64,000 bases of DNA from Candidatus Gorgyraea atricola (GCA_030765235.1 JAVCCW010000028.1:24744-88743); one strand, 5' to 3'; shown: positions 1,931 to 58,656, counted from the stretch's first letter. Notes: a model not told the origin generated them from the letters alone. A program made the numbers and translations.

Positions 1931-2959
1931 ATGAAAATTCTAGTATTAAATAGCGGAAGTTCATCCATAAAATATAAGCTCTTTGACATATCAAAGAATA
2001 AAGAAACGCTTTTAGATAAAGGCATGGCGGAGAGAGTTTCTGATCATAAGGAGGCGTTGAGTTTAATATTGAAAAAAATAGATTCAAAGATAGAGGCCTG
2101 TGGTCACAGGGTCGTGCATGGCGGGGATAGATTTAAAACAGCAGCACTGATCGATGAAACTGTAATGGAGACAATAGAACATTTTAGTGAATTAGCACCT
2201 CTTCATAATCCGCCAGCGCTTCTGACAATAAATGAGTCAAAGAAACTTCTTCCGGATGTGCCGCACGTAGCAGTGTTTGATACAGCCTTTTTTCAGACAA
2301 TGCCGGAATGCGCGTATCTATATGCTATACCGTATGCGCTTTACGAGAAACACAAGATCCGAAAATATGGTTTTCATGGCACATCTCATAAGTATGTAGC
2401 AGGTCAGGCCGCGAGGATCTTGAAAAAGTCCATTGATAAGCTAAAGATCATCACCTGTCATCTGGGGAATGGATGCAGTATAGCTGCTGTTAAAAGCGGC
2501 AAGGCCATTGATACAAGTATGGGATTTACGCCTTTGGAAGGCCTTATCATGGGGACGCGCTCAGGAGATATTGATCCGACAATAGTTTCTTATATTATGA
2601 AGAAACAGGGCGTGGATATTGATAGGGCGATTGAGATTTTGAACAAGGAGAGCGGGCTTTTAGGTATCTCGGGTATAAGCAATGACATGCGCGAGATAGT
2701 AAGAAAAAAAGACGATAAGAGGTCAGCCCTTGCGCTAAAGATGTTTGCGTACAGGATTAAAAAATACATCGGCGCTTATATAGCTTCAATGGGTGGAGTG
2801 GATGCAGTGGTCTTTACAGGTGGTATTGGCGAGAATCACCCAAACCTGGTGAAAGAAATATGCAAAGACGTTGTATCGCCAAAGGTCAGGATATTATCGA
2901 TTCCAACAGATGAGGAATTGATGATCGCGAGAGATACGTATGAAAATATATGTAGATAA
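1931..2959 (+). CDS. ackA: acetate kinase family (acetate/propionate kinase)
   Basis: MKILVLNSGSSSIKYKLFD N-terminus, RKYGFHGTSHKYV, VFTGGIGEN and PTDEELMIARD motifs. 342 aa is about 50 aa shorter than typical AckA. Confidence 0.75.
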   Translation: MKILVLNSGSSSIKYKLFDISKNKETLLDKGMAERVSDHKEALSLILKKIDSKIEACGHRVVHGGDRFKTAALIDETVMETIEHFSELAPLHNPPALLTINESKKLLPDVPHVAVFDTAFFQTMPECAYLYAIPYALYEKHKIRKYGFHGTSHKYVAGQAARILKKSIDKLKIITCHLGNGCSIAAVKSGKAIDTSMGFTPLEGLIMGTRSGDIDPTIVSYIMKKQGVDIDRAIEILNKESGLLGISGISNDMREIVRKKDDKRSALALKMFAYRIKKYIGAYIASMGGVDAVVFTGGIGENHPNLVKEICKDVVSPKVRILSIPTDEELMIARDTYENICR

Positions 2960-3410
2960 GATATTGCCAGAGGGATTAGATCTTGCAGAGAAAATAGACC
3001 CGGGTAAGATCTCGTCGGATCTGGCAAAGCAGGGCACGGCTTTTTTTGATTCAATAGATGTGAAGGCAAGGGTCACAAAGGCAGGGATGGAGGTCTTTGT
3101 CGATATTTCCCTGGAATCACCTGTTGAATATACGTGCAGTCGCTGTCTTGCTAAGATCAAGGATACTTTTAAGAAAAGTTTTAACACCAATTATGAAGTC
3201 CATCCAGGAGATATTCTGGAGATAGATGACGACATAAGACAGGAAATAATGCTGGATAGTCCGATAAAGATCGTTTGCAAACCTGATTGTAAAGGGCTAT
3301 GCCCGAATTGCGGTCAGAATTTCAATGTAGATGAATGTGAGTGCAAAACAGAAAACAGAAAACAGAAGACAGAAGACGGAAGACAGAAAAATCTGTTATC
3401 TGACCTCTGA
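2940..3410 (+). CDS. yceD: YceD/DUF177 family protein (large-subunit rRNA maturation factor)
   Basis: C-terminal Cys cluster CKPDCKGLCPNCGQNFNVDECEC. Lies immediately upstream of rpmF-plsX, as in most bacteria. The 3' end carries a 6x ACAGAAR heptamer repeat. Confidence 0.75.
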   Translation: MKIYVDKILPEGLDLAEKIDPGKISSDLAKQGTAFFDSIDVKARVTKAGMEVFVDISLESPVEYTCSRCLAKIKDTFKKSFNTNYEVHPGDILEIDDDIRQEIMLDSPIKIVCKPDCKGLCPNCGQNFNVDECECKTENRKQKTEDGRQKNLLSDL

Positions 3411-3427
3411 CTTCTGTCATCTGAACG
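3346..3427 (+). repeat. tandem heptamer (ACAGAAR) x6 followed by its inverted complement (tctgtt...tctgtcatctg) at the yceD 3' end and stop
   Basis: acagaaaacagaaaacagaagacagaagacggaagacagaaa, then atctgttatctgacctctgacttctgtcatctg. Read directly from the sequence. Confidence 0.7.
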
Positions 3428-3448: not shown

Positions 3449-3649
3449 ATGGCTTTACCAAAACGAAGACATTCGAGTTCAAGGCAGGGTAAGCGCAGAG
3501 GCGCGCAGAAGATCCATGTGCCGAGCGTATCAGTATGTCCGGATTGCAAGGCGCCAAAGTTATCACACAGGGTATGTCCTGCCTGTGGCTTTTACAAAGG
3601 CAGACAAGTCGTGCAGATAAAGAAGAAAGAGAAAGAAGAGAAGAAGTAG
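3449..3649 (+). CDS. rpmF: 50S ribosomal protein L32
   Basis: MALPKRRHSSSRQGKRRG...CPDCKAPKLSHRVCPACGFYKGRQV is a zinc-ribbon L32. The Lys/Glu-rich tail is encoded by a purine repeat. Confidence 0.9.
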   Translation: MALPKRRHSSSRQGKRRGAQKIHVPSVSVCPDCKAPKLSHRVCPACGFYKGRQVVQIKKKEKEEKK

Positions 3650-3654
3650 TAGTG

Positions 3655-3765
3655 AGGGACAAGGGACATGGGACCCCATACGAGAATCAAAGATTTCGTA
3701 CGGGGCAGGCAAGAGACAAGGGGGTTTAGATACTCCTTGTCCCTTGTTGCTTGTCACTTGTCCCC
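3655..3765. repeat. palindromic mini-repeat, intergenic copy (GGGACAA heptamers + core hairpin + inverted CCTTGTC arm)
   Basis: gggacaagggacatgggaccccatacgagaatcaaagatttcgtacggggcaggcaagagacaaggg...ccttgtcccttgttgcttgtcacttgtcccc. The core ccccatacga...tcgtacgggg is an inverted repeat. Near-identical cores occur at 6091-6157 and 30067-30138. Confidence 0.8.
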
Positions 3766-3782
3766 AAAGATGAGGTTTTGTC

Positions 3783-4769
3783 ATGATAAAGATAGCTTTA
3801 GACGCAATGGGATCGGATAATGCGCCGGGTGTGGATATTGAGGGTGCTGTGCTGGCGGCCCGTGAATATGACCACCAGATAATCCTGGTGGGTCAAAAAG
3901 ACCTCATTGAAAAGGAACTTGAAAATCACGGATCTATTCCAAAAAATATCTCCATAGAGCATGCCCCAGAGGTCATAGGCATGCACGAGCAGCCCGTTCT
4001 TAGCGTCAGAAGAAAAAAACATTCCTCTATTGTGACCCTGGCGAATCTTGCAAAAGAAAAAAAGGTAGACGCTATTGTCAGCGCGGGCAATACAGGCGCA
4101 ATGGTGTGCGCTGCCACGCTTAAATGCAGGCTTCTTCCTGGAATAGAAAGGGCAGGCATAGGTATTGTCATGCCTACCTTAAGAGATACGGCCTTGATGA
4201 TAGATGTAGGAGCTAATATAGGCGCTAAGCCCAAGCATCTCCTGCAGTATGCGATAATGGGAAGCGCCTATTCAGAATGTATATTAAATAAAAAATCCCC
4301 AAAGGTAGGGCTTCTGAATATCGGAGAGGAAGAATCAAAAGGCACGGGTTTTTTGAAAGAGGCATATGGACTTTTAGAGCTCTCGGGCCTGAATTTTATA
4401 GGCAATATCGAGGGCAGGGATCTTTTTATGGGAGATTGCGATGTTATCGTGTGCGATGGCCTGGTCGGGAATGTGGCGCTCAAGGTTTCAGAGAGCACTG
4501 CGCACGCCCTTACAGAGATGCTTAAGCAATACCTGAACAGCAGTTTTATTACAAGGCTTTCTGCTGTACTGGGCAGAAGCGCCTTTCGTTTATATAAGAA
4601 AAAGATGGATTCTGCCGAGTATGGCGGCGCGCCGCTTTTGGGTATAAATGGGATCTCTATAATATGCCATGGTTCTTCGAGCGCCAAGGCGATCAAGAAC
4701 GCTATTCGGGTAGCAGGCGAAGAATTCAATAAGAATGTAAATCAACATATAGTTGAGAAGATTTCATAG
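3783..4769 (+). CDS. plsX: phosphate acyltransferase PlsX
   Basis: 328 aa. MIKIALDAMGSDNAP N-terminus. Sits in the canonical rpmF-plsX-fabH position. Confidence 0.85.
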   Translation: MIKIALDAMGSDNAPGVDIEGAVLAAREYDHQIILVGQKDLIEKELENHGSIPKNISIEHAPEVIGMHEQPVLSVRRKKHSSIVTLANLAKEKKVDAIVSAGNTGAMVCAATLKCRLLPGIERAGIGIVMPTLRDTALMIDVGANIGAKPKHLLQYAIMGSAYSECILNKKSPKVGLLNIGEEESKGTGFLKEAYGLLELSGLNFIGNIEGRDLFMGDCDVIVCDGLVGNVALKVSESTAHALTEMLKQYLNSSFITRLSAVLGRSAFRLYKKKMDSAEYGGAPLLGINGISIICHGSSSAKAIKNAIRVAGEEFNKNVNQHIVEKIS

Positions 4770-5854: not shown

Positions 5855-6826
5855 ATGAAAAATGTAAGTTATATTTTTCCAGGGCAGAGCGCGCAGCATG
5901 TTGGCATGGGCAAGGATCTGTATGAAAATTGCCCTGAGGCAAAAGACGCGTTTGATGAGGCAGAAAAGATTTTACCAGAGGCAGGCATTAAGAAACTCTG
6001 CTTTGAGGGACCTCTTGAAGAACTAACTCAGACAGCGAATAGTCAGGTGTGTATTCTTGTGGCTAGTGTGGCGGCGTTGAAGGCATTAGTGACAAGTGAC
6101 AAGGGACCCCATACGAAAATCGGAGATTTCGTACGGGGCAGGCAAGGGACAAGGGTTGTTGCTTGCGCAGGGCTTAGTTTGGGAGAACTCACGTCGCTTG
6201 TGGCTGCAGGAAGTATTGAATTTGCTGATGCTGTGCGCCTCGTTAGACGGCGTGGCGAATTAATGGAAGAGTCGTCCAGGAAGAATCCAGGCAGCATGGC
6301 CTCTATAATCGGCCTGGCGCTCGAGGATCTAAAAAAAGTTTGTGCTGAGACAGGCGCTGAGATAGCAAATCTAAATTGCCCTGGCCAGATAGTCATATCC
6401 GGGAGAAAAGAATCTGTTGAAAAGGCAATGCCCCTTGCGTTAGAAAAAGGCGCTAAAAAGGCAATAGCCTTAAAAGTGAGCGGAGGATTTCATTCTTCTT
6501 TAATGAAGGAGGCAGCAGATCTTTTTAAAATAGAACTGGACAAGGTAAAATTTTCAGCGCCTCAGATAGGTGTTGTCAGTAATGTAACCGCGGATTATGA
6601 AAAAACGCCTGACGAGATCAAAGATAATCTCGTTAAACAGCTATTTAGTCCAGTGCGCTGGGAAGAATCTATAAAGAGAATTGCCTCCTCAGATGGGGGC
6701 GTTGATATATTTTTTGAAATCGGCCCAGGGAAAGTGCTAAAAGGATTATTGCGTAGAATAGATGGTAATCTAAAGGTCCATAACATAGAAAAAGTACAAG
6801 ATATAGAAAATATAAAAAAGATGTAG
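5855..6826 (+). CDS. fabD: malonyl-CoA:ACP transacylase (carries an in-frame repeat insertion at 6091-6157)
   Basis: 323 aa. FPGQSAQHVGMG and the nucleophile elbow AGLSLGELTSL. The ORF is uninterrupted through the repeat. Confidence 0.85.
   Translation: MKNVSYIFPGQSAQHVGMGKDLYENCPEAKDAFDEAEKILPEAGIKKLCFEGPLEELTQTANSQVCILVASVAALKALVTSDKGPHTKIGDFVRGRQGTRVVACAGLSLGELTSLVAAGSIEFADAVRLVRRRGELMEESSRKNPGSMASIIGLALEDLKKVCAETGAEIANLNCPGQIVISGRKESVEKAMPLALEKGAKKAIALKVSGGFHSSLMKEAADLFKIELDKVKFSAPQIGVVSNVTADYEKTPDEIKDNLVKQLFSPVRWEESIKRIASSDGGVDIFFEIGPGKVLKGLLRRIDGNLKVHNIEKVQDIENIKKM
6091..6157. repeat. palindromic mini-repeat copy inside the fabD coding sequence, in-frame
   Basis: gacaagtgacaagggaccccatacgaaaatcggagatttcgtacggggcaggcaagggacaaggg, translated SDKGPHTKIGDFVRGRQGTR within FabD. 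Confidence 0.8.
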
Positions 6827-8191: not shown

Positions 8192-8206
8192 CGAAGCTTT
8201 TCTGTA

Positions 8207-8246
8207 GGCCAGGTTTAAACCTGGCCTACAGAAAAGCGGAGTTATC
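8207..8246. repeat. 40-nt perfect palindrome cttttctgtaggccaggttt|aaacctggcctacagaaaag (core shared with 24753-24778)
   Basis: Perfect 20-bp arms centred on GTTTAAAC. Lies immediately after the fabF stop. A second copy of the 26-nt core occurs after gspM. Confidence 0.75.
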
Positions 8247-24722: not shown

Positions 24723-24778
24723 CTTTACACTTAACCAAGGCTTAAGTGTAAAGTAGGCCAGGTTTAAACCTGGCCTAC
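24722..24778. repeat. two adjacent perfect palindromes after gspM: actttacacttaa-ccaaggc-ttaagtgtaaagt and gtaggccaggtttaaacctggcctac
   Basis: The second is the 26-nt core of the 8207-8246 palindrome. Confidence 0.75.
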
Positions 24779-24798
24779 AGAGAAGTTAGGAGTTGACC

Positions 24799-28454: not shown

Positions 28455-29606
28455 ATGGATTATTTGTTGACTGAAGAACAGATAATGATTCGCGATTTGG
28501 CAAGGCAGATAGCCAAAGAAAAGATCAAACCTGTTGCGGCAAAGTATGACGAAGAGGGCATATTCCCGTGGGATATCGTGAAGATCCTGGCGGATAGCGA
28601 TCTCTGCGGCATATACATCGAGGAAAAATACGGCGGCATAGGAGGCGGTTCCATGGAGCTCGTGCTCGCGACAGAGGAGCTGTCCAAGGCATGCGGCGGT
28701 ATTTCACTTGCGCTGGCAGCTACGGCGCTCGGGACATACCCTATTATTTTGTTTGGCACAGACGCTCAGAAGGAAAAATATCTTCCTGATATCGCTAAGG
28801 GCAAGAAGCTCGCTGCATTTGCTCTTACAGAGGCAGGCGCTGGGAGTGACGCAGCAGCAGTCGCGACCACTGCGGAGAAAAAAGGCGATCATTATATATT
28901 GAATGGCACAAAACAATGGATTACAAATGGCGGCGAGGCCGAGGTCTATACTGTAGTTGCCTCAGTTGACAGAAGAAAAGGCGCGCGCGGCGCAGCGACA
29001 TTTATTGTTGAAAAGGGTACGCCGGGTTTTGAATTTGGAAAAAAAGAAGATAAGATGGGTATACGCGCGTCTGCTACAAGAGAGCTTGTTTTTACAGATT
29101 GTAAGATCCCCAAAGAGAATCTGCTTGGCAAAGAGGGCGGTGGATTTATCGTTGCGATGAAGACATTCGATCAGTCCAGGCCAGGCGTGGCAGCACAGGC
29201 ACTTGGCATTGCGCAGGGAGCATTGGATCTTACTGTTGAATATGTAAAAGGGAGAAAGCAATTTGGTAAATCAGTATCTTCTTTTCAGGGCGTGCAGTTT
29301 ATGCTCGCTGACATAGCGACACAGATAGAGGCAGCCAGGGCATTGATATACGCGACAGCAAGGATGCTGGATAGCGGAGCCAAGAAGGTTGCCAAGGATT
29401 CCGCGATAGCAAAGCTCTTTGCCTCAGACATGGCCATGAAGGTCACGGTTGACTGCGTGCAGCTATTCGGCGGCTACGGATATATGCGCGATTACCCGAT
29501 AGAAAAATACATGCGCGACGCAAAGATCACGCAGATATACGAGGGTACAAACCAGATACAGCGCAGCGTCATCGCATTAAATCTACTAAAGGAGCGCACC
29601 ACCTAA
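28455..29606 (+). CDS. acyl-CoA dehydrogenase (short-chain/butyryl-CoA dehydrogenase family)
   Basis: 383 aa. LTEEQIMIRDLARQIAKEKIKP, FALTEAGAGSDAAA, and a C-terminal YEGTNQIQR. Confidence 0.85.
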   Translation: MDYLLTEEQIMIRDLARQIAKEKIKPVAAKYDEEGIFPWDIVKILADSDLCGIYIEEKYGGIGGGSMELVLATEELSKACGGISLALAATALGTYPIILFGTDAQKEKYLPDIAKGKKLAAFALTEAGAGSDAAAVATTAEKKGDHYILNGTKQWITNGGEAEVYTVVASVDRRKGARGAATFIVEKGTPGFEFGKKEDKMGIRASATRELVFTDCKIPKENLLGKEGGGFIVAMKTFDQSRPGVAAQALGIAQGALDLTVEYVKGRKQFGKSVSSFQGVQFMLADIATQIEAARALIYATARMLDSGAKKVAKDSAIAKLFASDMAMKVTVDCVQLFGGYGYMRDYPIEKYMRDAKITQIYEGTNQIQRSVIALNLLKERTT

Positions 29607-29610
29607 AGAT

Positions 29611-30462
29611 ATGAATATTATCGTCTGCATAAAACAGGTCCCGGATACAACAGATATTAGAATAGATCCTGAGACGAATACGCTTATCAGGAGCGGAGTG
29701 GCAAGTATTATAAATCCATTCGATATGTACGCGATTGAAGAAGGGATCCGTCTTAAGGAGAAGTTTGGCGGTAAAGTCACGATTCTGACAATGGGACCGC
29801 CGCAGGCAGAAGATGCGTTGCGCGAGGCGATCTCGCTTGGCGCAGATGAGGCGATCCTTGTTTCAGATCGCGCATTTGCGGGGAGCGACACTTGGGCAAC
29901 GAGTTACACCCTATCAAAGGCGATCCATAAGATAGGCGACTGCGATCTTATAATCTGCGGAAAGCAGGCAATCGACGGTGATACTGCTCAGGTCGGGCCT
30001 GGCATTTCAGCGCACCTCGATATACCACAGGTCGCGTATGTTAAAAAGATAGAAGAGGTAAATTTAGGGACAAGGGACCCCATACGAGAATCAAAGATTT
30101 CGTACGGGGCAGGCAAGGGACAAGGGACAAGTAGTGGCTATATGCGTACCGAGAGGATGACAGAGGAAGGCTATGAGATCATTGAATCGCCTCTGCCGTG
30201 CCTGATTACTGTTGTAAAAGAGATAAATGAGCCAAGGCTCCCTTCTTTAAAGGGGAAGATGAAGGCCAAAAAGATTGAAATAAAAAAGTGGGGCGCAAAA
30301 GATCTCGATGTGGATCCTGATCTGATCGGACTCAATGGCTCACCAACAAAGGTGGTAAGGATATTCACGCCGCCCCCCAGAGAAAAAGGTCAGATGCTAG
30401 AAGGAGACGCAAAAGAGGTAAGCGAGAAATTAGTCGAGTTGTTAAAGAAGGATATTTTATAA
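29611..30462 (+). CDS. etfB: electron transfer flavoprotein beta subunit (carries an in-frame repeat insertion at 30067-30138)
   Basis: 283 aa. MNIIVCIKQVPDT, and AILVSDRAFAGSDTWATSYTLSKAI. The ORF is uninterrupted through the repeat. Confidence 0.85.
   Translation: MNIIVCIKQVPDTTDIRIDPETNTLIRSGVASIINPFDMYAIEEGIRLKEKFGGKVTILTMGPPQAEDALREAISLGADEAILVSDRAFAGSDTWATSYTLSKAIHKIGDCDLIICGKQAIDGDTAQVGPGISAHLDIPQVAYVKKIEEVNLGTRDPIRESKISYGAGKGQGTSSGYMRTERMTEEGYEIIESPLPCLITVVKEINEPRLPSLKGKMKAKKIEIKKWGAKDLDVDPDLIGLNGSPTKVVRIFTPPPREKGQMLEGDAKEVSEKLVELLKKDIL
30067..30138. repeat. palindromic mini-repeat copy inside the etfB coding sequence, in-frame (different frame from the fabD copy)
   Basis: gggacaagggaccccatacgagaatcaaagatttcgtacggggcaggcaagggacaagggacaagtag, translated RDPIRESKISYGAGKGQGTSS. 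Confidence 0.8.
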
Positions 30463-30463
30463 A

Positions 30464-31672
30464 ATGTCTATCAGGGTTATCAATGAAAAATGTACGGGTT
30501 GTAAGCTTTGCATAAAGGCGTGTCCTTTTGCAGCAATTGAAGTGAAGGATAAAAAGGCTGTAATAGATCTGGACAAATGCAATCTGTGCGGTGCGTGCAT
30601 AGAATCATGCAAGTTTGACGCGATCGTACTTACCAAGATAAGCCCATCAGATATAGATTTTCCAAAAAAGATAGAACAGCATAAAAACGTGTGGGTGTTT
30701 TGTGAACAGAAGAATAGCGTTATCCAGAGCGTGGCATACGAGCTTTTAGGAAAAGGCCGGGAGCTTGCTGACGCGCTTGGCGTAGAGCTTTGCGGGGTTT
30801 TGCTGGGCGAGGCCATGAAAGAACAGGCGCAGGACATTATTCACAGGGGAGCTAATAAGGTGTATCTTGTAGATTCGCCAAAACTCAAACATTACCAGAG
30901 TGAGCCCTACTCAAAGACGCTTATCAAATTAATAAAGGAATACAAGCCAGAGATAGTGCTTTGCGGTGCGACCTCCATAGGCCGTTCATTGATATCGCGC
31001 GTGGCAATAGGGATCCATGCAGGACTTACTGCAGATTGTACAGGACTGGATATAGATAAAAAAGAAAAATTGCTTTTACAGACAAGGCCTGCGTTTGGCG
31101 GTAATATTATGGCCACGATCATCTGCCCGAATCACAGGCCTCAGATGGCGACTGTGCGGCATAAGGTGATGAAGGAGGCTGAGCCTGATAATCGACATAA
31201 AGGAAAGATCATAGAAAATAGTTATGACGATGATACCTATTTTTCACGTACAAAACTGCTAGATGTGGTGGAGGAAATAGAAGAGACCGTAAACCTCACA
31301 GAGGCAGACATCATTGTCTCAGGTGGCAGGGGCCTGCAGAAGCCAGAGAATTTCAGTATCATAGAGGATCTGGCCAAGGTCCTGGGCGGCGCAGTTGGTG
31401 CTTCCCGCGCGTCAGTAGACGCAGGATGGAAAAGTTACTCGCATCAGGTGGGACAGACAGGAAAGACTGTGTGTCCAAAGATCTATATTGCATGTGGCAT
31501 CTCAGGCCAGATACAGCATCTTGTAGGCATGCAATCGTCAGATGTAATAGTGGCGATAAACAAAGATCCACACGCGCCTATTTTCAGCGTAGCTACTTAC
31601 AGCATAGTAGGCGATTTATTTGAGGTCGTGCCAGAGCTGACAAAGAAGTTTAAAGAAGTTTTAAAGAAATAA
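30464..31672 (+). CDS. etfA: electron transfer flavoprotein alpha subunit with N-terminal 2x[4Fe-4S] ferredoxin domain
   Basis: 402 aa. CTGCKLCIKACP and CNLCGACIESC cysteine motifs sit in the first about 60 aa. An EtfA FAD-binding domain follows, ending SDVIVAINKDPHAPIF. Confidence 0.85.
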   Translation: MSIRVINEKCTGCKLCIKACPFAAIEVKDKKAVIDLDKCNLCGACIESCKFDAIVLTKISPSDIDFPKKIEQHKNVWVFCEQKNSVIQSVAYELLGKGRELADALGVELCGVLLGEAMKEQAQDIIHRGANKVYLVDSPKLKHYQSEPYSKTLIKLIKEYKPEIVLCGATSIGRSLISRVAIGIHAGLTADCTGLDIDKKEKLLLQTRPAFGGNIMATIICPNHRPQMATVRHKVMKEAEPDNRHKGKIIENSYDDDTYFSRTKLLDVVEEIEETVNLTEADIIVSGGRGLQKPENFSIIEDLAKVLGGAVGASRASVDAGWKSYSHQVGQTGKTVCPKIYIACGISGQIQHLVGMQSSDVIVAINKDPHAPIFSVATYSIVGDLFEVVPELTKKFKEVLKK

Positions 31673-31687
31673 TATCTACGTTTGTGT

Positions 31688-31750
31688 AAAGTGTCAGGTG
31701 TCAAGTGTCAGGGGCGTTCCTTGACACTTGACACTTTGAACCTGACACCA
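31688..31750. repeat. imperfect palindrome built from GTGTCAR units in the smc 5' leader
   Basis: aaagtgtcaggtgtcaagtgtcagg ggcgttcc ttgacacttgacactttgaacctgacac. Confidence 0.6.
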
Positions 31751-31774: not shown

Positions 31775-34700
31775 ATGTATTTCAAACGATTAGAATTATT
31801 TGGTTTTAAATCATTTGCCGAAAGGACAAAGCTGGACTTTGAGCCGGGCATAACCGCTATCGTGGGGCCAAATGGCTGCGGCAAATCAAATATTGCCGAT
31901 TCTATAAAGTGGGTGCTTGGTGAGCAGTCTGCGAAGATGCTGCGCGGCGGCAAAATGGAAGATGTGATCTTCAATGGCACTGACGGCAGAGAGCCAGTCA
32001 ATTACGCTGAGGTCTCGCTCACCCTCTCCAATCAGGACCGTATACTCCCTATCGAATATGACGAAGTCACTGTTGCGCGCCGGCTCTACCGCTCAGGCGA
32101 AAGCGAATATCTGATCAACAAAACCACCGTAAGACTTAAAGACGTGAGTGAGCTTTTCATGGGCACTGGCATTGGCACAAGCGCCTACTCGCTTATTGAA
32201 CAGGGGAAAATAGATCAGGTCTTAAGTTCGAGACCAGAAGACAGGCGCGAGGTCTTTGAGGAGGCAAGCGGCATCACAAAATATAAATCAAAGAGAAAAG
32301 AAGCTATGCGGCGGCTCGACGGCACAGAACAGAATCTCGTTAGGATCAATGATATTATCATAGAGGTCAAGCGCCAGATAAATTCTATAGAGAGACAGGC
32401 CAGAAAGGCAGAGCGTTATAAGGAAAGATACGAAGAACTAAAGGCCCTGGAATTGAAACTGACAAGGATAGAGTTGGAGTTATTAAACCAAAAAATAAAA
32501 GAATCCAGCACGAATCTGGAAGGCCTTAAGACAAGAGAATCAGAGCTAAATTCAGGATTGCAAAAAATGATAGGCGAGCTTTCAGAATTGAATACCCAGC
32601 GTTCTGAGATCGAGTCAAAGAGGATGGATTTTAAGTCCACCATCATAGAGACTGATTCTGAAGTGTCTAAGTCAAAAGATAAACTTTCCATGAACAGGGA
32701 AAGGATAGAGGAACTAAAGAAAAGGCGCATCGATCTCGAGAGCGAGATAGAAAAAAGCGCGGATAGTATAAAATCCCAGCGAAAAGAAGTAGAGGGCTTA
32801 AGAGAAAAGGTCTCGACGCTACAGACTGAGGACATGGAACGTTCCTCCGCTCTTTCAGTCAAGGAAAAGAGGCTCGACGAGACCTCAAAGACTATTTCTG
32901 AAAACGAGACGACCATTTCCACATCCAAGGCAAACCTGATAGACCTTGCCTCAAAGGAGTCTAAATTAAGAAATCAATCCGCAAAGATCTCTACGACCCT
33001 CGCATCAGATGACGCGAGACTCAAGAGACTCACAGTAGAAAAAGATACTATTTTGGAAGAAAAAAATAGTCTGGATGTAAAGCTGAGCGATGTGTTGAAA
33101 GAGGTCGAGCAGGTAGAAACAGAAGTCCTATCCTTGAAGGACGAAAAAGAAAGTGTTTCTCAAAAAGTATCCGCTTTGACTAGCCGCATAGAAAGCCTGA
33201 CAAGTCAATCAACGCAGATCCATCAGACTCTTGCCACTAATAAATCCAGGTTCGATGTCCTGAATGAGGCAAAGGCAAAGTATGAGGGTTTTTCTTCAGG
33301 CGTAAAGGCCATAATGGGCAAAGGCGTTTTTAAGAAAAAGCCAATAGAAGGCGTGCAAGACGCCCTTGCGAACCTCTTTAGTGTAAATAAAGGATACGAG
33401 ATCGCCATAGAGTCAGCACTCGGAGAAAACCTGGAGTCTATTCTCGTCGATGATCTTGAATCTGCGGAAAAGGCAATAGAGTTTCTGAAAGAGAATTCAC
33501 TCGGCAAGGCATTATTCGCGCACCCAGATTCTTTCCGGGCGATGCAAAGTGAGACCTCGCTTAGCGACAGCCGTATACTAGGCAGGGCAATAGACTTCGC
33601 GCGCATAAATAATAAGTGCAGAAACATCTTAGAGTATCTTTTGAAAGATACCTTTATTGTAAAAGACTTGAAAGATGCGGCCAGCATTCTAAAAGAGAAC
33701 CCGGATCTAAAAGAATCCACATTTGTTACGCTGCTTGGCGAAAAGATCGGCAGGGGATTTGTCTCTGGTGGAGATATCAGAGATGCGGGCCTTACGCTTA
33801 TAAATAGAGAAGAGAACATAAAGGAGCTTTTTGAGATAATAGCTGCGTCAGAGGCCAGATTTAAAATAATAGAAGAGGAAAAATTAACCGGCGAACAGGA
33901 AAAAGAAGAGTTAGAAAAAAGATCAGAAGTCGTCACCTCGAGCCTTAATGAAAAAGAGATCATGCTTGCCAATGCCAGGACCAGGCGCAGCAATATAGAG
34001 GAGAACATGAAAGGGGTGGCGGATGAGATCTCACTTGTCTCTCTTGAAGTAGACGAGGTGACTTCCGAGGCAGAGAGATTAAAAGAAGAAGAGCTTAGTG
34101 TTGTAAAGGCCCTGAAGCAGTCAGAAAACGATACGCATCTAAACCAGGAAAGGATCAAGAGAAGCGAGATCCTCATAAGTGATTATGCAAAGGAAAAAGA
34201 ACAGCTTATCATAGAGGTGGCAGAGCAGAGGACTGAATTAGGTTCTCTCGAGAGCAAAAAAGAAGGCCTTTCAAATACATTGAATCTCCTGGATAGCTCC
34301 TTAAAGGATGTAGAGAATAGCCGCCAGGCCCGTAAGGCAGAGATAGAGGATTCTATTAAAAAGGTAAAGGAATTAAGTGATGGACTCATGACCCTTGAAA
34401 AAAATATAGAGTCTTTATCTGAGAAAAGTGGCGAAAAAGGCGTGGAGCTGGAGGGCGTAGAGAGTGTTTATTCAGCGGTAATGCAAAAAATAAAAGAGCA
34501 AGAAGTCATCTTTAAGCAATCAGAAAAAGAGATAAACAGTCTTCGTTCGAATGTACATGAGATAGACCTTAAAAGGGCTGAGACAAATTATGGACTCGAG
34601 AATCTGACCCAGCGAATAAAGGATGTGTATAAGCTGGACCTGAATGAGGTCGAGATAGTCGAGAACTGGCAGGATATAGAAAGGGATGCGCTTCGTTCTG

Positions 34701-35356
34701 AGGTCGAGGAAAAGCGTGAAAAGCTGGATTCTATGGGCACAGTGAATCTGGTGGCCATCGAAGAACACACAGAACTCCAGGATAGATTCGCGTTTTTAAC
34801 ACACCAGCGGGATGATTTACTAAAGGCAAAGGACACGCTCTTAAAGGCCATAGCCAAGATAAACAAGATCACAAAAGAGCTTTTTATGGAGACATTTAAG
34901 AGTATACAGGTCGAGTTCAGGAATTTCTTTAAGATGCTGTTCGGCGGCGGCGACGGCGAGCTGATACTTCTGGATGAAAATAATGTGCTTGAGTCTGGCA
35001 TCGAGATAGTGGCAAGACCTCCAGGAAAAAGGCTTCAGAATGTGTCGCTGCTTTCAGGGGGAGAAAAGGCCCTCACCGCGATCTCACTCATCTTTGCCAT
35101 ATTCAAGGTAAAGCCCAGCCCGTTCTGCGTGCTGGATGAGATAGACGCGCCCCTTGACGAGTCAAACGTTGACAGGTTTTCAAGAAGCCTTGATATGTTT
35201 ACAAACACCTCACAGTTCATCGTAATAACCCACAACAAAAAGACCATTGATAAGGCCGACGTGATGTATGGCATCACCATGCAGCAGTCAGGCGTCTCTA
35301 AAGTTGTCTCAGTGAAATTTTCTGACTCTAGGAAACAAGAGGCAGCGACTAAATAA
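31775..35356 (+). CDS. smc: chromosome partition protein SMC
   Basis: Start chosen at MYFKRLELFGFKSFAERTKLDF with Walker A GPNGCGKSN. Long coiled coils, a hinge, and a C-terminal LSGGEKALTAISLIFAIF...VLDEIDAPLD ABC signature and D-loop. The ORF track's upstream extension covers the palindrome. Confidence 0.85.
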   Translation: MYFKRLELFGFKSFAERTKLDFEPGITAIVGPNGCGKSNIADSIKWVLGEQSAKMLRGGKMEDVIFNGTDGREPVNYAEVSLTLSNQDRILPIEYDEVTVARRLYRSGESEYLINKTTVRLKDVSELFMGTGIGTSAYSLIEQGKIDQVLSSRPEDRREVFEEASGITKYKSKRKEAMRRLDGTEQNLVRINDIIIEVKRQINSIERQARKAERYKERYEELKALELKLTRIELELLNQKIKESSTNLEGLKTRESELNSGLQKMIGELSELNTQRSEIESKRMDFKSTIIETDSEVSKSKDKLSMNRERIEELKKRRIDLESEIEKSADSIKSQRKEVEGLREKVSTLQTEDMERSSALSVKEKRLDETSKTISENETTISTSKANLIDLASKESKLRNQSAKISTTLASDDARLKRLTVEKDTILEEKNSLDVKLSDVLKEVEQVETEVLSLKDEKESVSQKVSALTSRIESLTSQSTQIHQTLATNKSRFDVLNEAKAKYEGFSSGVKAIMGKGVFKKKPIEGVQDALANLFSVNKGYEIAIESALGENLESILVDDLESAEKAIEFLKENSLGKALFAHPDSFRAMQSETSLSDSRILGRAIDFARINNKCRNILEYLLKDTFIVKDLKDAASILKENPDLKESTFVTLLGEKIGRGFVSGGDIRDAGLTLINREENIKELFEIIAASEARFKIIEEEKLTGEQEKEELEKRSEVVTSSLNEKEIMLANARTRRSNIEENMKGVADEISLVSLEVDEVTSEAERLKEEELSVVKALKQSENDTHLNQERIKRSEILISDYAKEKEQLIIEVAEQRTELGSLESKKEGLSNTLNLLDSSLKDVENSRQARKAEIEDSIKKVKELSDGLMTLEKNIESLSEKSGEKGVELEGVESVYSAVMQKIKEQEVIFKQSEKEINSLRSNVHEIDLKRAETNYGLENLTQRIKDVYKLDLNEVEIVENWQDIERDALRSEVEEKREKLDSMGTVNLVAIEEHTELQDRFAFLTHQRDDLLKAKDTLLKAIAKINKITKELFMETFKSIQVEFRNFFKMLFGGGDGELILLDENNVLESGIEIVARPPGKRLQNVSLLSGGEKALTAISLIFAIFKVKPSPFCVLDEIDAPLDESNVDRFSRSLDMFTNTSQFIVITHNKKTIDKADVMYGITMQQSGVSKVVSVKFSDSRKQEAATK

Positions 35357-35530
35357 TAAATCCCAAATCCAAATACTACCAAATCCCAAATAAATCCAAT
35401 CCTTTGACTACGCTCAGGATTGGCCCTGAGCAAAGTCGAAGGGCCAAAATCCCAAATCCAAAACCATGTTTGGGATTTGGAAATTGGGATTTATTTGGTA
35501 GTATTGGTATTTATTGGGATTTGGGATTTT
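35357..35530. repeat. about 170-nt composite palindrome of AAATCCCAAATCC units between the convergent smc and GGDEF genes (probable bidirectional terminator)
   Basis: aaatcccaaatccaaatactaccaaatcccaaataaatcc ... ggatttatttggtagtattggtatttattgggatttgggattt, with internal hairpins ggccctgagcaaagtcgaagggcc and ccaaatccaaaaccatgtttgggatttgg. Confidence 0.65.
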
Positions 35531-41645: not shown

Positions 41646-42725
41646 ATGACAAAAAGGATACTGATAATAAATCCATTCGGAATAGGGGATGTTTTGTTTT
41701 CAACCCCTTTGATCGCTACTATTAAAGAAAAATACTCTGGGTGCTATATAGGGTATATATGTAATATAAGGACAGAGGAGATACTGGCTGCAAATCCCGG
41801 GATAGACGAAGTTTTTATATTTGAGAGAGATGAATATAGAGAGCTCTGGAAGAAGTCAAAACTGGAATGTCTTAAGAAGCTTTGCGATTTCTGGAAAGAG
41901 ATAAAAAAAAGAAGATTCGATCTATTGTTTGACCTTTCCCTGGGCAGGGAATATGCGTTTTTATGCTGGTTGATAGGCATAAGAGAGCGCAGGGGTTTTA
42001 ATTATAAAGGCCGCGGGAGATTTTTGACGCATAAGATTCAGTTTGATGGGTTTAGTGGCAGGCCTGTCGCGGAATATTACTTGGATGCTATTAGGGACAA
42101 GGGACAAGGGACAAGGGACAAGGGGTTGATTTTAGCAACAACAGATAAGGATAAAGAATATATTGATGCCTTTTTGAAAAAGGCAGGGATTAAAGAACAG
42201 GATACGCTGGTCGGCATTGCGCCTGGAGGAGGCGCTTCTTATGGCAAAGAAAAATCCCATTACAAAAGATGGGGCTGTGAGAAGTTTGCTGTGCTTGCTG
42301 ACAGGATAGCATCGTGCGGGGCTAAGCCTATCTTACTGGGAGGACCTAAAGAAAAAGACTTGATCAGGGATGTTAAACTAAAAATGCAAGGCAAGCCCCT
42401 CATGGGGCCAGACGCAAAAATAAGAGAGATGGCTTGTTTGATCAAAAGATGTAACGTACTTGTGTGTAACGACGGGGGACTCTTACATATAGCCGTGAGT
42501 CAGGATACGCCTACAGTTTCCATTTTCGGACCCACTGATGAAAAGGTCTATGGCCCGTATCCGGCATCTAAAAAACATATTGTTGTAACAAACAATGCGG
42601 ATTGCAGGCCTTGCTACAGGCGTTTCAGGCTGCCAGAATGTACTGACAGGAAGTGCATGGAAGACCTTTCTGTAGACTCTGTTTTTAACGCGCTTTCAAA
42701 ATTTATCCAAGAGGTAGGGACATGA
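41646..42725 (+). CDS. GT9-family glycosyltransferase (LPS heptosyltransferase-like); contains GGGACAA x4 repeat
   Basis: 359 aa. [24 protein letters not shown]-terminus, and LGGPKEKDL...[16 protein letters not shown]-terminal GT-B motifs. Confidence 0.75.
42094..42125 (+). repeat. tandem heptanucleotide GGGACAA x4 (+GGGG) inside the GT9 ORF
   Basis: gggacaagggacaagggacaagggacaagggg, translated [11 protein letters not shown]. The same heptamer flanks the palindromic mini-repeats. Confidence 0.8.
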
Positions 42726-58526: not shown

Positions 58527-58656
58527 CACGGAGGTTGCGGAATGTTACGGAATGTTAGAGAAGGTTACGGAAGGTTACAAGAGGCGATGGATTTCAGCGC
58601 TTTTAGTGTAACATTCCGCAACCTTCCGAAACATTCCGCAACCTTATGTAACATCC
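58527..58656. repeat. about 130-nt imperfect palindrome built from GGTTGCGGAATGTT/ACGGAA units between the epimerase and gmhB
   Basis: ggaggttgcggaatgttacggaatgttagagaaggttacggaaggttaca ... tgtaacattccgcaaccttccgaaacattccgcaaccttatgtaacat. Confidence 0.6.

Follow-up and report, generated by a model that had tools for sequence, protein, structure and literature searches.

A 36-nt hairpin nested in heptanucleotide arrays inside etfB and fabD of an uncultured Omnitrophota bacterium, a probable non-autonomous mobile element

Short repeated DNA is carried in frame by conserved genes of Candidatus Gorgyraea atricola, an uncultured member of the Omnitrophota represented here by 64 kb of a metagenome-assembled genome (MAG); this whole stretch is referred to as the window. 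Its EtfB and FabD are 100% identical to proteins recorded under this name. One of its open reading frames (ORFs) encodes an ETF beta subunit (EtfB; Pfam PF01012, E = 4.5e-46) and is flanked by genes for an acyl-CoA dehydrogenase and for an EtfA that has a 2x[4Fe-4S] domain at its N terminus. At 30067-30131 the etfB ORF contains, in frame, a repeat of ~65 nt which the original prediction, made from the sequence alone, had quoted correctly and described as an inserted mini-repeat. The insertion was borne out, although the repeat is not one unit: it consists of two nested layers, namely GGGACAA/GTGACAA heptamers in an array and, within it, a hairpin of exactly 36 nt, and only the hairpin is a clean presence/absence unit, lodged in a pre-existing array. 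The 32-nt core of the hairpin matches the window three times at <=3 mismatches, versus no match in 100 shuffles. The three copies, inside etfB, inside fabD and in the rpmF-plsX spacer, are arranged as follows:

29611..30462, + strand, etfB host gene, 283 aa, bifurcating-type Etf small subunit
30067..30077, + strand, left heptamers in etfB (GGGACAA GGGA^)
30078..30113, + strand, hairpin element, etfB copy (CCCCATACGAGAATCAAAGATTTCGTACGGGG+CAGG), EtfB codons 156-168, read (D)PIRESKISYGAG
30114..30131, + strand, right heptamers in etfB (^CAA GGGACAA GGGACAA G)
5855..6826, + strand, fabD host gene, 323 aa
6088..6106, + strand, left heptamers in fabD (A GTGACAA GTGACAA GGGA^)
6107..6142, + strand, hairpin element, fabD copy (bulge A, loop GGA), codons 85-96, read PHTKIGDFVRGR
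6143..6155, + strand, right heptamers in fabD (^CAA GGGACAA GGG)
3674..3709, + strand, hairpin element, intergenic copy, between rpmF (3449..3649) and plsX (3783..4769)
3655..3767, + strand, composite intergenic structure: direct heptamers 3655-3673, core, heptamers 3710-3724, inverted heptamers 3735-3767

The alignment of 19 copies gave the unit consensus CCCCATACGA[G/A]AATC-[AAA/GGA/AGA/TTC]-GATTTCGTACGGGG-CA[G/T]G. The stem of 14 bp is imperfect, carrying a single A.C mismatch and a single bulged purine, and is closed by a loop of 3 nt; the stem-loop (32 nt) and a 3' tail of 4 nt (CAGG or CATG) add up to 36 nt, that is, 12 codons. Copy-to-copy variation falls on the bulge, the loop and the tail, and the stem is touched by just four singleton transitions among the 19 copies, a conservation which is in part by construction as the copies were gathered with patterns fixing much of the stem. 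Covariation was not found in the stem. The four transitions leave a wobble pair on the + strand in two cases and on the - strand in the other two, and assignment of an RNA strand by wobble versus mismatch gave no signal and was abandoned. None of the sense frames of the 36-mer contains a stop codon and a single one occurs in one antisense frame; the sense peptides are hydrophilic (grand average of hydropathicity, GRAVY, of -1.2 to -2.1) and lack Cys, whereas the antisense peptides have GRAVY values of +0.4 to +1.0 and contain Cys. In the source genome every 36-mer is embedded in GGGACAA/GTGACAA heptamers and splits one of them at GGGA^CAA; a C on either side makes GGGAC^AA just as possible, an ambiguity of 1 nt. 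The phase of the junction is always GA^C across copies (GGGA^CAA, GTGA^CAA, GAACGA^C, GCGA^CAG).

The translation of the window etfB across the insert is ...NLGTRDPIRESKISYGAGKGQGTSSGYMRTERMTEEGYEII..., in which the hairpin is read PIRESKISYGAG, and residues ~149-173 of the protein have no counterpart in the solved structures 6fah_B, 5ol2_B and 4kpu_B. Alignment of 120 Omnitrophota orthologs revealed a base state without the insert (KKIEDIK--DSFIRAERM, proteins of 260-261 aa), and the segment is not ancestral EtfB sequence, in agreement with the original prediction. In fabD the hairpin is read in a different frame, as had also been stated, giving HTKIGDFVRGR; the E. coli FabD shows a gap of 13 residues relative to the window protein just before the GxSxG elbow, and the FabD base state (120 Omnitrophota orthologs aligned) is ALKT--SDEIVACAGLSLGE. 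The nucleophile elbow of the window FabD itself (residues 106-111, 6170-6187) reads GLSLGE and not the usual GHSLGE, a variant present in 119 of the 120 Omnitrophota orthologs. The peptides predicted to span the inserts are DPIRESKISYGAGK and GPHTKIGDFVR. The closest orthologous loci were checked for synteny and then compared at the DNA level (L005-L007 for etfB, L009 for fabD), and none of them has the hairpin:

etfB, L007 (89% protein identity): TTTA GGGACAA GTAGTGG
etfB, L005/L006 (91% protein identity): TTTA GGGACAA GGGACAC GGGACAA GGGACAA GTGGTGG
etfB, window: TTTA GGGACAA GGGA[36 nt]CAA GGGACAA GGGACAA GTAGTGG
fabD, L009 (83% protein identity): TTA (GGGACAA)x4 GGG, no hairpin
fabD, window: TTA GTGACAA GTGACAA GGGA[36 nt]CAA GGGACAA GGG

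The etfB site is found in three states, namely one heptamer (L007), four heptamers (L005/L006) and four heptamers plus exactly 36 nt (window), and the step from the array of L007 to that of L005 amounts to +21 nt with the frame kept. At fabD the array has 4.6 units in both L009 and the window, which adds 36 nt at the same heptamer phase. The number of heptamers is equal with and without the hairpin at both genes, and comparison of filled and empty orthologous sites disclosed no target-site duplication in either. If the AAGGGAC repeats on either side had slipped, the loss would be 43 nt, so the clean difference of 36 nt would point to an element-specific reaction. No hairpin copy was detected in ~75 kb of the close relatives, versus three in the 64-kb window, and the rpmF-plsX spacer of L009 is unrelated to that of the window. 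A more distant EtfB (77% identical; P0066 of L008) carries at the same loop a 27-nt hairpin, CCCCGTACCACAAGGGTACGGGGCAGG (L008 1391-1417), with the same termini and tail as the 36-mer and a length that is also a multiple of three; related peptides occur in P0054 and P0065. This hairpin may be either a separate strike on that hotspot or an insertion that is old and has diverged.

These data bear on the view that the segments are ordinary lineage-specific loop extensions under selection on EtfB and FabD, the nucleotide likeness between genes being secondary. The loop is length-variable in many Omnitrophota and the inserts are in frame in proteins that are otherwise fully conserved; however, the same 36 nt (<=2 differences) occur in unrelated genes, in three frames and in a spacer, which selection on protein cannot yield, and the closest orthologs lack the segment. 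This view is effectively refuted by the frame-independent nucleotide identity and is given virtually no credence.

According to AlphaFold2 models built with ortholog alignments, both inserts are in low-confidence surface loops. In EtfB, strands 140-151 and 177-184 are predicted to form a beta-hairpin whose tip holds the insert (residues 152-176); the predicted local distance difference test (pLDDT) score is <50 for residues 156-173. The insert belongs to the subunit's own alpha/beta domain and not to domain II, where it had been expected; by standard ETF nomenclature we take this region to be domain III. The FabD insert (residues 81-98) is placed in the loop that joins helix 60-80 to strand 99-106 and immediately precedes the GLSLGE elbow, with a pLDDT of 57-67 in a model of mean pLDDT 91. 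The invariant residues of both families are all intact in the insert-bearing proteins.

The hairpin is not restricted to the window. A scan of a genome collection with the core pattern retrieved 4 loci (three Omnitrophota MAGs and one Planctomycetia-binned MAG), none of them from the source genome, and a metagenome scan with a generalized signature retrieved 20. An identical core lies inside GAACGAC heptamers in L001, and in L010 the core occupies GCGACAA heptamers at the same protein site of a second FabD lineage. In L002 and L004 it has a TTC loop and a CATG tail and lies in other repeats; those surrounding it in L002-L004 and L042 are unrelated and non-heptameric. Eight contigs of the JGI metagenome Ga0075122 supplied nine further copies with GGGACAA flanks and identical junctions, all in long ORFs and all in sense orientation. 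Their hosts, identified with Pfam, are LeuS (twice), PyrD (twice), Tgt, LigA (in the HHH-BRCT linker), a HisH-type amidotransferase, a SPOR protein and an Fe-S protein, the first five kinds being recognizable housekeeping hosts (7 of the 9 copies), and RluD of L001 is a further sense-orientation host. Among the Gorgyraea-type copies, 11 of 12 are intragenic. Next to the intergenic copies of L002, L003/L031 and L042 lie genes such as those for transporters and for a nucleotidyltransferase/HEPN pair. L003, from the MAG labelled Planctomycetia, and L031, from a JGI metagenome, share one intergenic TTC-loop copy whose flanks are identical in both; the Planctomycetia-binned copy represents either cross-phylum spread or a binning error.

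All three sense frames are used among the 13 sense copies, which lie in Pfam-verified genes: six are read as DPIRESKISYGAG, four as PHTRIKDFVRGRQ and three as TPYENQRFRTGQA. The PyrD of L038 (Ga0075122_10034775) has a tandem pair exactly one heptamer (7 nt) apart, read in two frames within one protein (GTPCENQRFRTGQARDPIRESKISYGAGK). The idea of an element family tolerated within coding sequence in every sense frame was thereby sustained, although by a different route than the one first proposed: the third frame is used by other copies of metagenomic origin, in PyrD, RluD and an Fe-S protein, whereas read-through of rpmF over the intergenic copy uses the fabD frame (GTRDMGPHTRIKDFVRGRQ), and the peptide formerly assigned to that read-through, GTPYENQRFRTGQARDKG, derives from a spurious out-of-frame ORF (3535..3729). 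An exact look-up of the window EtfB gave no record. An exhaustive HMMER search with the 30-aa EtfB segment returned one unrelated eukaryotic repeat protein, in a database whose clustering at 50% hides insert-bearing variants; a word-indexed search with a synthetic three-frame query gave no match, a negative of no weight as even P0001 was missed by it. Several metagenome matches of 31-42 nt (L030, L032-L034, L036, L037, L039, L041, L046 and L047) were set aside as they have no internal stem, and their number is near a rough estimate of ~10 chance matches for the pattern. In viral contigs, 16 of the 17 matches to the generalized signature correspond to one conserved phage coding region, which is not a hairpin, and the remaining one (L018, = L043) is a hairpin whose relation to the 36-mer is uncertain.

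Of the 14 ORF-embedded copies, 13 are in sense orientation (p = 0.002) and one, in a YfhO-like gene, is antisense. This bias, together with the high conservation of the hairpin across genomes and the position of the intergenic copy, immediately upstream of plsX within a highly stable structure (3655-3767, a three-way junction of -54 kcal/mol, z = -5.8), would be expected of a functional cis-acting RNA element joining housekeeping mRNAs in a post-transcriptional regulon, as a binding, pause or processing site. Such a role is very improbable. The sense-strand folds of the coding copies, with their A.C mismatch, are modest (z = -1.75 and -0.33), the stem transitions are not compensatory and are split 2:2 by strand, and the hairpin is missing from the same genes in sister lineages. 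No Rfam family matched the window at gathering thresholds, and at permissive thresholds the intergenic copy gave only noise (E > 0.06). Moreover, the contrast between hydrophilic sense peptides and hydrophobic, Cys-containing antisense peptides is sufficient to explain the orientation bias. The same contrast and the stop-free sense frames fit selection on translated sequence, which speaks against the 36 nt being removed from RNA as a mini-intron-like intervening sequence that leaves the proteins without the insert; the flanking heptamer arrays would have to be translated anyway. With a length divisible by three, the frame would be unaffected whether the 36 nt were removed or retained, and the hairpin geometry is fixed, but we know of no bacterial mRNA system of this kind, and we regard this option as extremely remote.

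The heptamer arrays have a distribution of their own. Many Omnitrophota EtfB and FabD orthologs have inserts at exactly these two loops with a periodicity of seven residues, and true arrays were confirmed in ortholog DNA, as (GAATCAC)x4 in L048 and as degenerate ACGAnnn units in L050; both loops are a general hotspot for heptamer arrays in the Omnitrophota. The window also contains an array without hairpin:

42093..42124, + strand, hairpin-free (GGGACAA)x4.6 array in a GT9 glycosyltransferase ORF (41646..42725)

Coding heptamer arrays therefore exist independently of the hairpin in the source genome, and the GT9 array is of the kind that the hairpin targets. Although (GGGACAA)4 matches the G3N4 quadruplex motif, a requirement for a G-quadruplex in targeting was rejected, given that GAACGAC, GCGACAA and GTGACAA arrays without G-tracts still host the hairpin.

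A mobile unit comprising the whole composite (~1.6 heptamers, hairpin and ~2 heptamers; roughly 61-64 nt, resembling a MITE, or miniature transposable element with inverted repeats), with empty arrays as excision footprints, was also considered. The flanks are highly uniform, with AGGGACAAGGGA on the left in 8 of the 12 Gorgyraea-type copies and CAAGGGACAAGGG on the right in most, and the inverted heptamer arms of the intergenic copy resemble terminal inverted repeats. Nevertheless, the L007 etfB site has a single GGGACAA as ordinary coding sequence, heptamer counts do not change with the hairpin at two loci, hairpin-free arrays of many heptamers fill the same loops across the Omnitrophota, and an identical core is found in GAACGAC and GCGACAA heptamers as well as in non-heptamer repeats. 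This alternative is considered improbable.

The explanation that is held to be quite likely is that of a non-autonomous mobile hairpin which homes into heptamer arrays and is translated and tolerated. The arrays would grow at surface loops by frame-keeping steps (+21 nt), the 36-nt hairpin would integrate precisely into them at a fixed phase without target duplication, and its length in whole codons, stop-free sense frames and hydrophilic peptides would allow it to persist as a translated, disordered extension in essential genes. The empty and filled sites would reflect a putative gain of the hairpin rather than its precise loss, with presumed mobility in trans by a mechanism acting on DNA. 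Several considerations weigh against this explanation. The filled and empty sites may also be due to precise loss, and the source genome was surveyed over 64 kb only. Neither the window nor the surroundings of any copy revealed a mobilizing enzyme or transposase, and BLAST searches of plasmids and phages with the 37-mer returned chance-level matches only, with no autonomous parent. The uniform flanks could mean that a larger composite unit moves, the conservation of the stem is in part a product of the search patterns, and translation of the inserts in the host proteins is itself predicted from the reading frames.

How a hairpin of this type might be mobilized can be discussed tentatively. The conserved stem base and CAGG tail look like a recognition or cleavage tag, and the absence of target duplication and the fixed target phase would be compatible with IS200/IS605-type single-strand transposition. 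A "peel-and-paste" reaction on single-stranded DNA, by an HUH/Y1-type (IS200/IS605/RAYT-like) or similar enzyme that reads the stem base and CAGG, is a possible, if doubtful, route. All window copies have their top strand on the G-rich + strand, the lagging-strand template, an arrangement that transposition of this type would predict but that is confounded with gene orientation: the + strand carries 57 of the 58 window ORFs of >=90 aa, GC skew is positive throughout (0.10-0.22), and the window lies on one replichore with extreme gene co-orientation.

The 36-mer may not be the only module of its sort. A second hairpin of 20 nt, TCCCTCGACTTCGCTCGGGA, occurs three times and is followed by CAGG in two of them; it was found in L028 beside the core in a HisH-like gene, and twice ~1.5 kb apart in L001, once beside the core in an RluD-like gene. 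It is nested in heptamers too and is translated PSTSLGTG / ESRAKSRDE. A broader proposal, somewhat less than evenly favored, is that of an undescribed class of CAGG-tagged micro-hairpin modules, present in the Omnitrophota and at least one Planctomycetia-binned MAG and written into heptamer arrays by a trans-acting site-specific machinery; its members would be the 36-nt core, the 27-nt relative of L008 and the 20-nt TCCCTCGACTTCGCTCGGGA+CAGG. In the sister organism a short repeat of its own, ATCGCGGAACCAACGCGGAAG, starts immediately behind the etfA and rpmF stops (L007 8133-8155 and L009 7963-7985), and a GCCGGCCTTCGGCCGG hairpin comes after it in L009; each lineage appears to own a repertoire of such modules.

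Among known systems, the Rickettsia palindromic elements (RPEs), reported by Ogata et al. in 2000, occur in frame in unrelated genes at fold-compatible sites (PMC10969869), with a size of ~100-150 bp, a CGTC terminal tag and a distribution confined to Rickettsia (PMC3733652, PMC10969869). Like RPEs, the present element is a palindromic selfish repeat found in frame in unrelated housekeeping genes, adds a fold-compatible peptide and has intergenic copies; unlike them it measures 36 nt (61-65 nt with heptamers), ends in a CAGG tail, is nested in heptamers, uses all three frames and belongs to the Omnitrophota. No CGTC/GACG was found within 6 nt of the stem in any of the 19 copies, and in view of the element's size and host phylum, homology to the consensus sequences of RPE-1 to RPE-10 is improbable. 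The RPE-like character anticipated at the outset consequently applies to behavior and not to family membership, and the element is a much smaller analogue of RPEs.

Repetitive extragenic palindromic (REP) sequences are hairpins of 20-40 nt with a GTAG tag cleaved by RAYT, and intragenic REPs exist (PMC3733652). The REP/REPIN systems, mobilized by RAYT enzymes (Y1 transposases of the IS200/IS605 family), and the present element share imperfect hairpins of 20-40 nt, a short tag beside the stem, lack of target duplication and strand or orientation bias, but the latter is mostly intragenic, single or in tandem direct copies, whereas REPs are extragenic and often form inverted pairs. GTAG was absent from all 19 copies, the conserved tag being the 3' CAGG/CATG, and no RAYT or other transposase was evident in the 64-kb window. 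The element also departs from MITEs in having no target-site duplication, 36 nt instead of 50-500 bp, and no parent insertion sequence found.

The small dispersed repeats (SDR) of Nostocaceae reportedly measure 21-27 nt, as Elhai et al. are said to have described in 2008. Both these and the present element are modules of tens of nucleotides whose mobility is deduced from precise presence/absence, without target duplication or a known transposase, and both occupy a fixed position in a short iterated motif (HIP1 for SDR5, GGGA^CAA here). SDR5 is inserted precisely between nt 3 and 4 of HIP1 (PMC4390886), elements SDR4-6 are also covered by PMC3116915, and SDR-like repeats are stated not to have been found outside Nostocaceae (PMC5861425). 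The present element measures 36 nt (27 nt in the L008 variant) and differs from the SDRs, as secondary citations describe them, in phylum, target and mostly intragenic location. In logic, SDRs are the nearest known system.

Published heptamer arrays, mainly intergenic and with a preference for ~4 units, include the GGGNATC G4 repeats of Xanthomonas and Nostoc (PMC4692102) and TAACTGA of Beggiatoaceae (PMC4679880). These and the present arrays (the cyanobacterial short tandemly repeated repetitive, STRR, sequences included in the comparison) are genome-specific, have 2-6 iterations at many loci and prefer ~4 units; the published ones are under-represented in coding strands, whereas those described here are on the coding strand of conserved enzymes and serve as hairpin landing pads. 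The best description of the whole is a system of two layers, in which heptamer arrays act as landing pads for a CAGG-tagged hairpin of 36 nt; the phylum is new and the target logic distinctive. A limited literature search, which is not proof of novelty, found no description of such elements in the Omnitrophota.

To our knowledge, in-frame selfish palindromes in essential genes are textbook material for Rickettsia only and very small mobile modules for Nostocaceae only, and the mechanism of both has stayed unsolved for decades. The hairpin offers a clean system to approach it, with a unit of 36 nt, exact empty and filled sites, a defined target phase, a shared 3' tag and different heptamers in each genome. 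In bacteria that are uncultured and have reduced genomes, the evolution of protein loops can be seeded by heptamer arrays, which are usually regarded as intergenic. In practical terms, the inserts inflate and confuse alignments, hidden Markov model scores and structure models of Omnitrophota proteins, and fragment short-read assemblies. If the broader proposal of a class of CAGG-tagged modules is true, arrays and hairpins would constitute a modular system that steadily remodels surface loops of essential proteins, the first outside Nostocaceae and Rickettsia, and the enzyme involved could be a new kind of small-DNA integrase.

Other features of the window deserve mention. The Etf locus (28455-31672) resembles the electron-bifurcating type: the ferredoxin domain of EtfA is like that of CarE, and EtfB is nearest to CarD and to the EtfB proteins of Clostridium and Acidaminococcus (E about 1e-70). 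No tRNA or tmRNA was detected in the window. A GTAG-tagged perfect palindrome, GTAGGCCAGGTTTAAACCTGGCCTAC, is located just downstream of genes at 8197-8236 and 24753-24785 and is absent from all 50 fetched loci; it is a classical REP-like element and suggests that other parts of the genome may encode a RAYT-type transposase.

Heptamers recur at other positions of the window. The 3' end of the YceD/DUF177 gene (ORF 2940..3410) has (AAAACAG)x6.6 and (ATCTGAC)x3.9 arrays (3345-3390 and 3398-3424) that supply the protein's C-terminal tail and the spacer leading to rpmF. The intergenic palindromes at 35348-35529 and 58528-58654 consist of inverted AAATCCC/CCAAAAT heptamers and ACGGAAGGTT / AACATTCCGC decamers, and are built in the same way as the heptamer arms that flank the intergenic copy of the hairpin. 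In the etfA-smc spacer (31684-31748), inverted GTGTCAA/GTGTCAG heptamers form a long palindrome, while the spacer of L007 is ~30 nt long and has none; the TTG listed as the smc start (31682) is probably artefactual, the true start lying near 31776 (MYFKRLELFGF).

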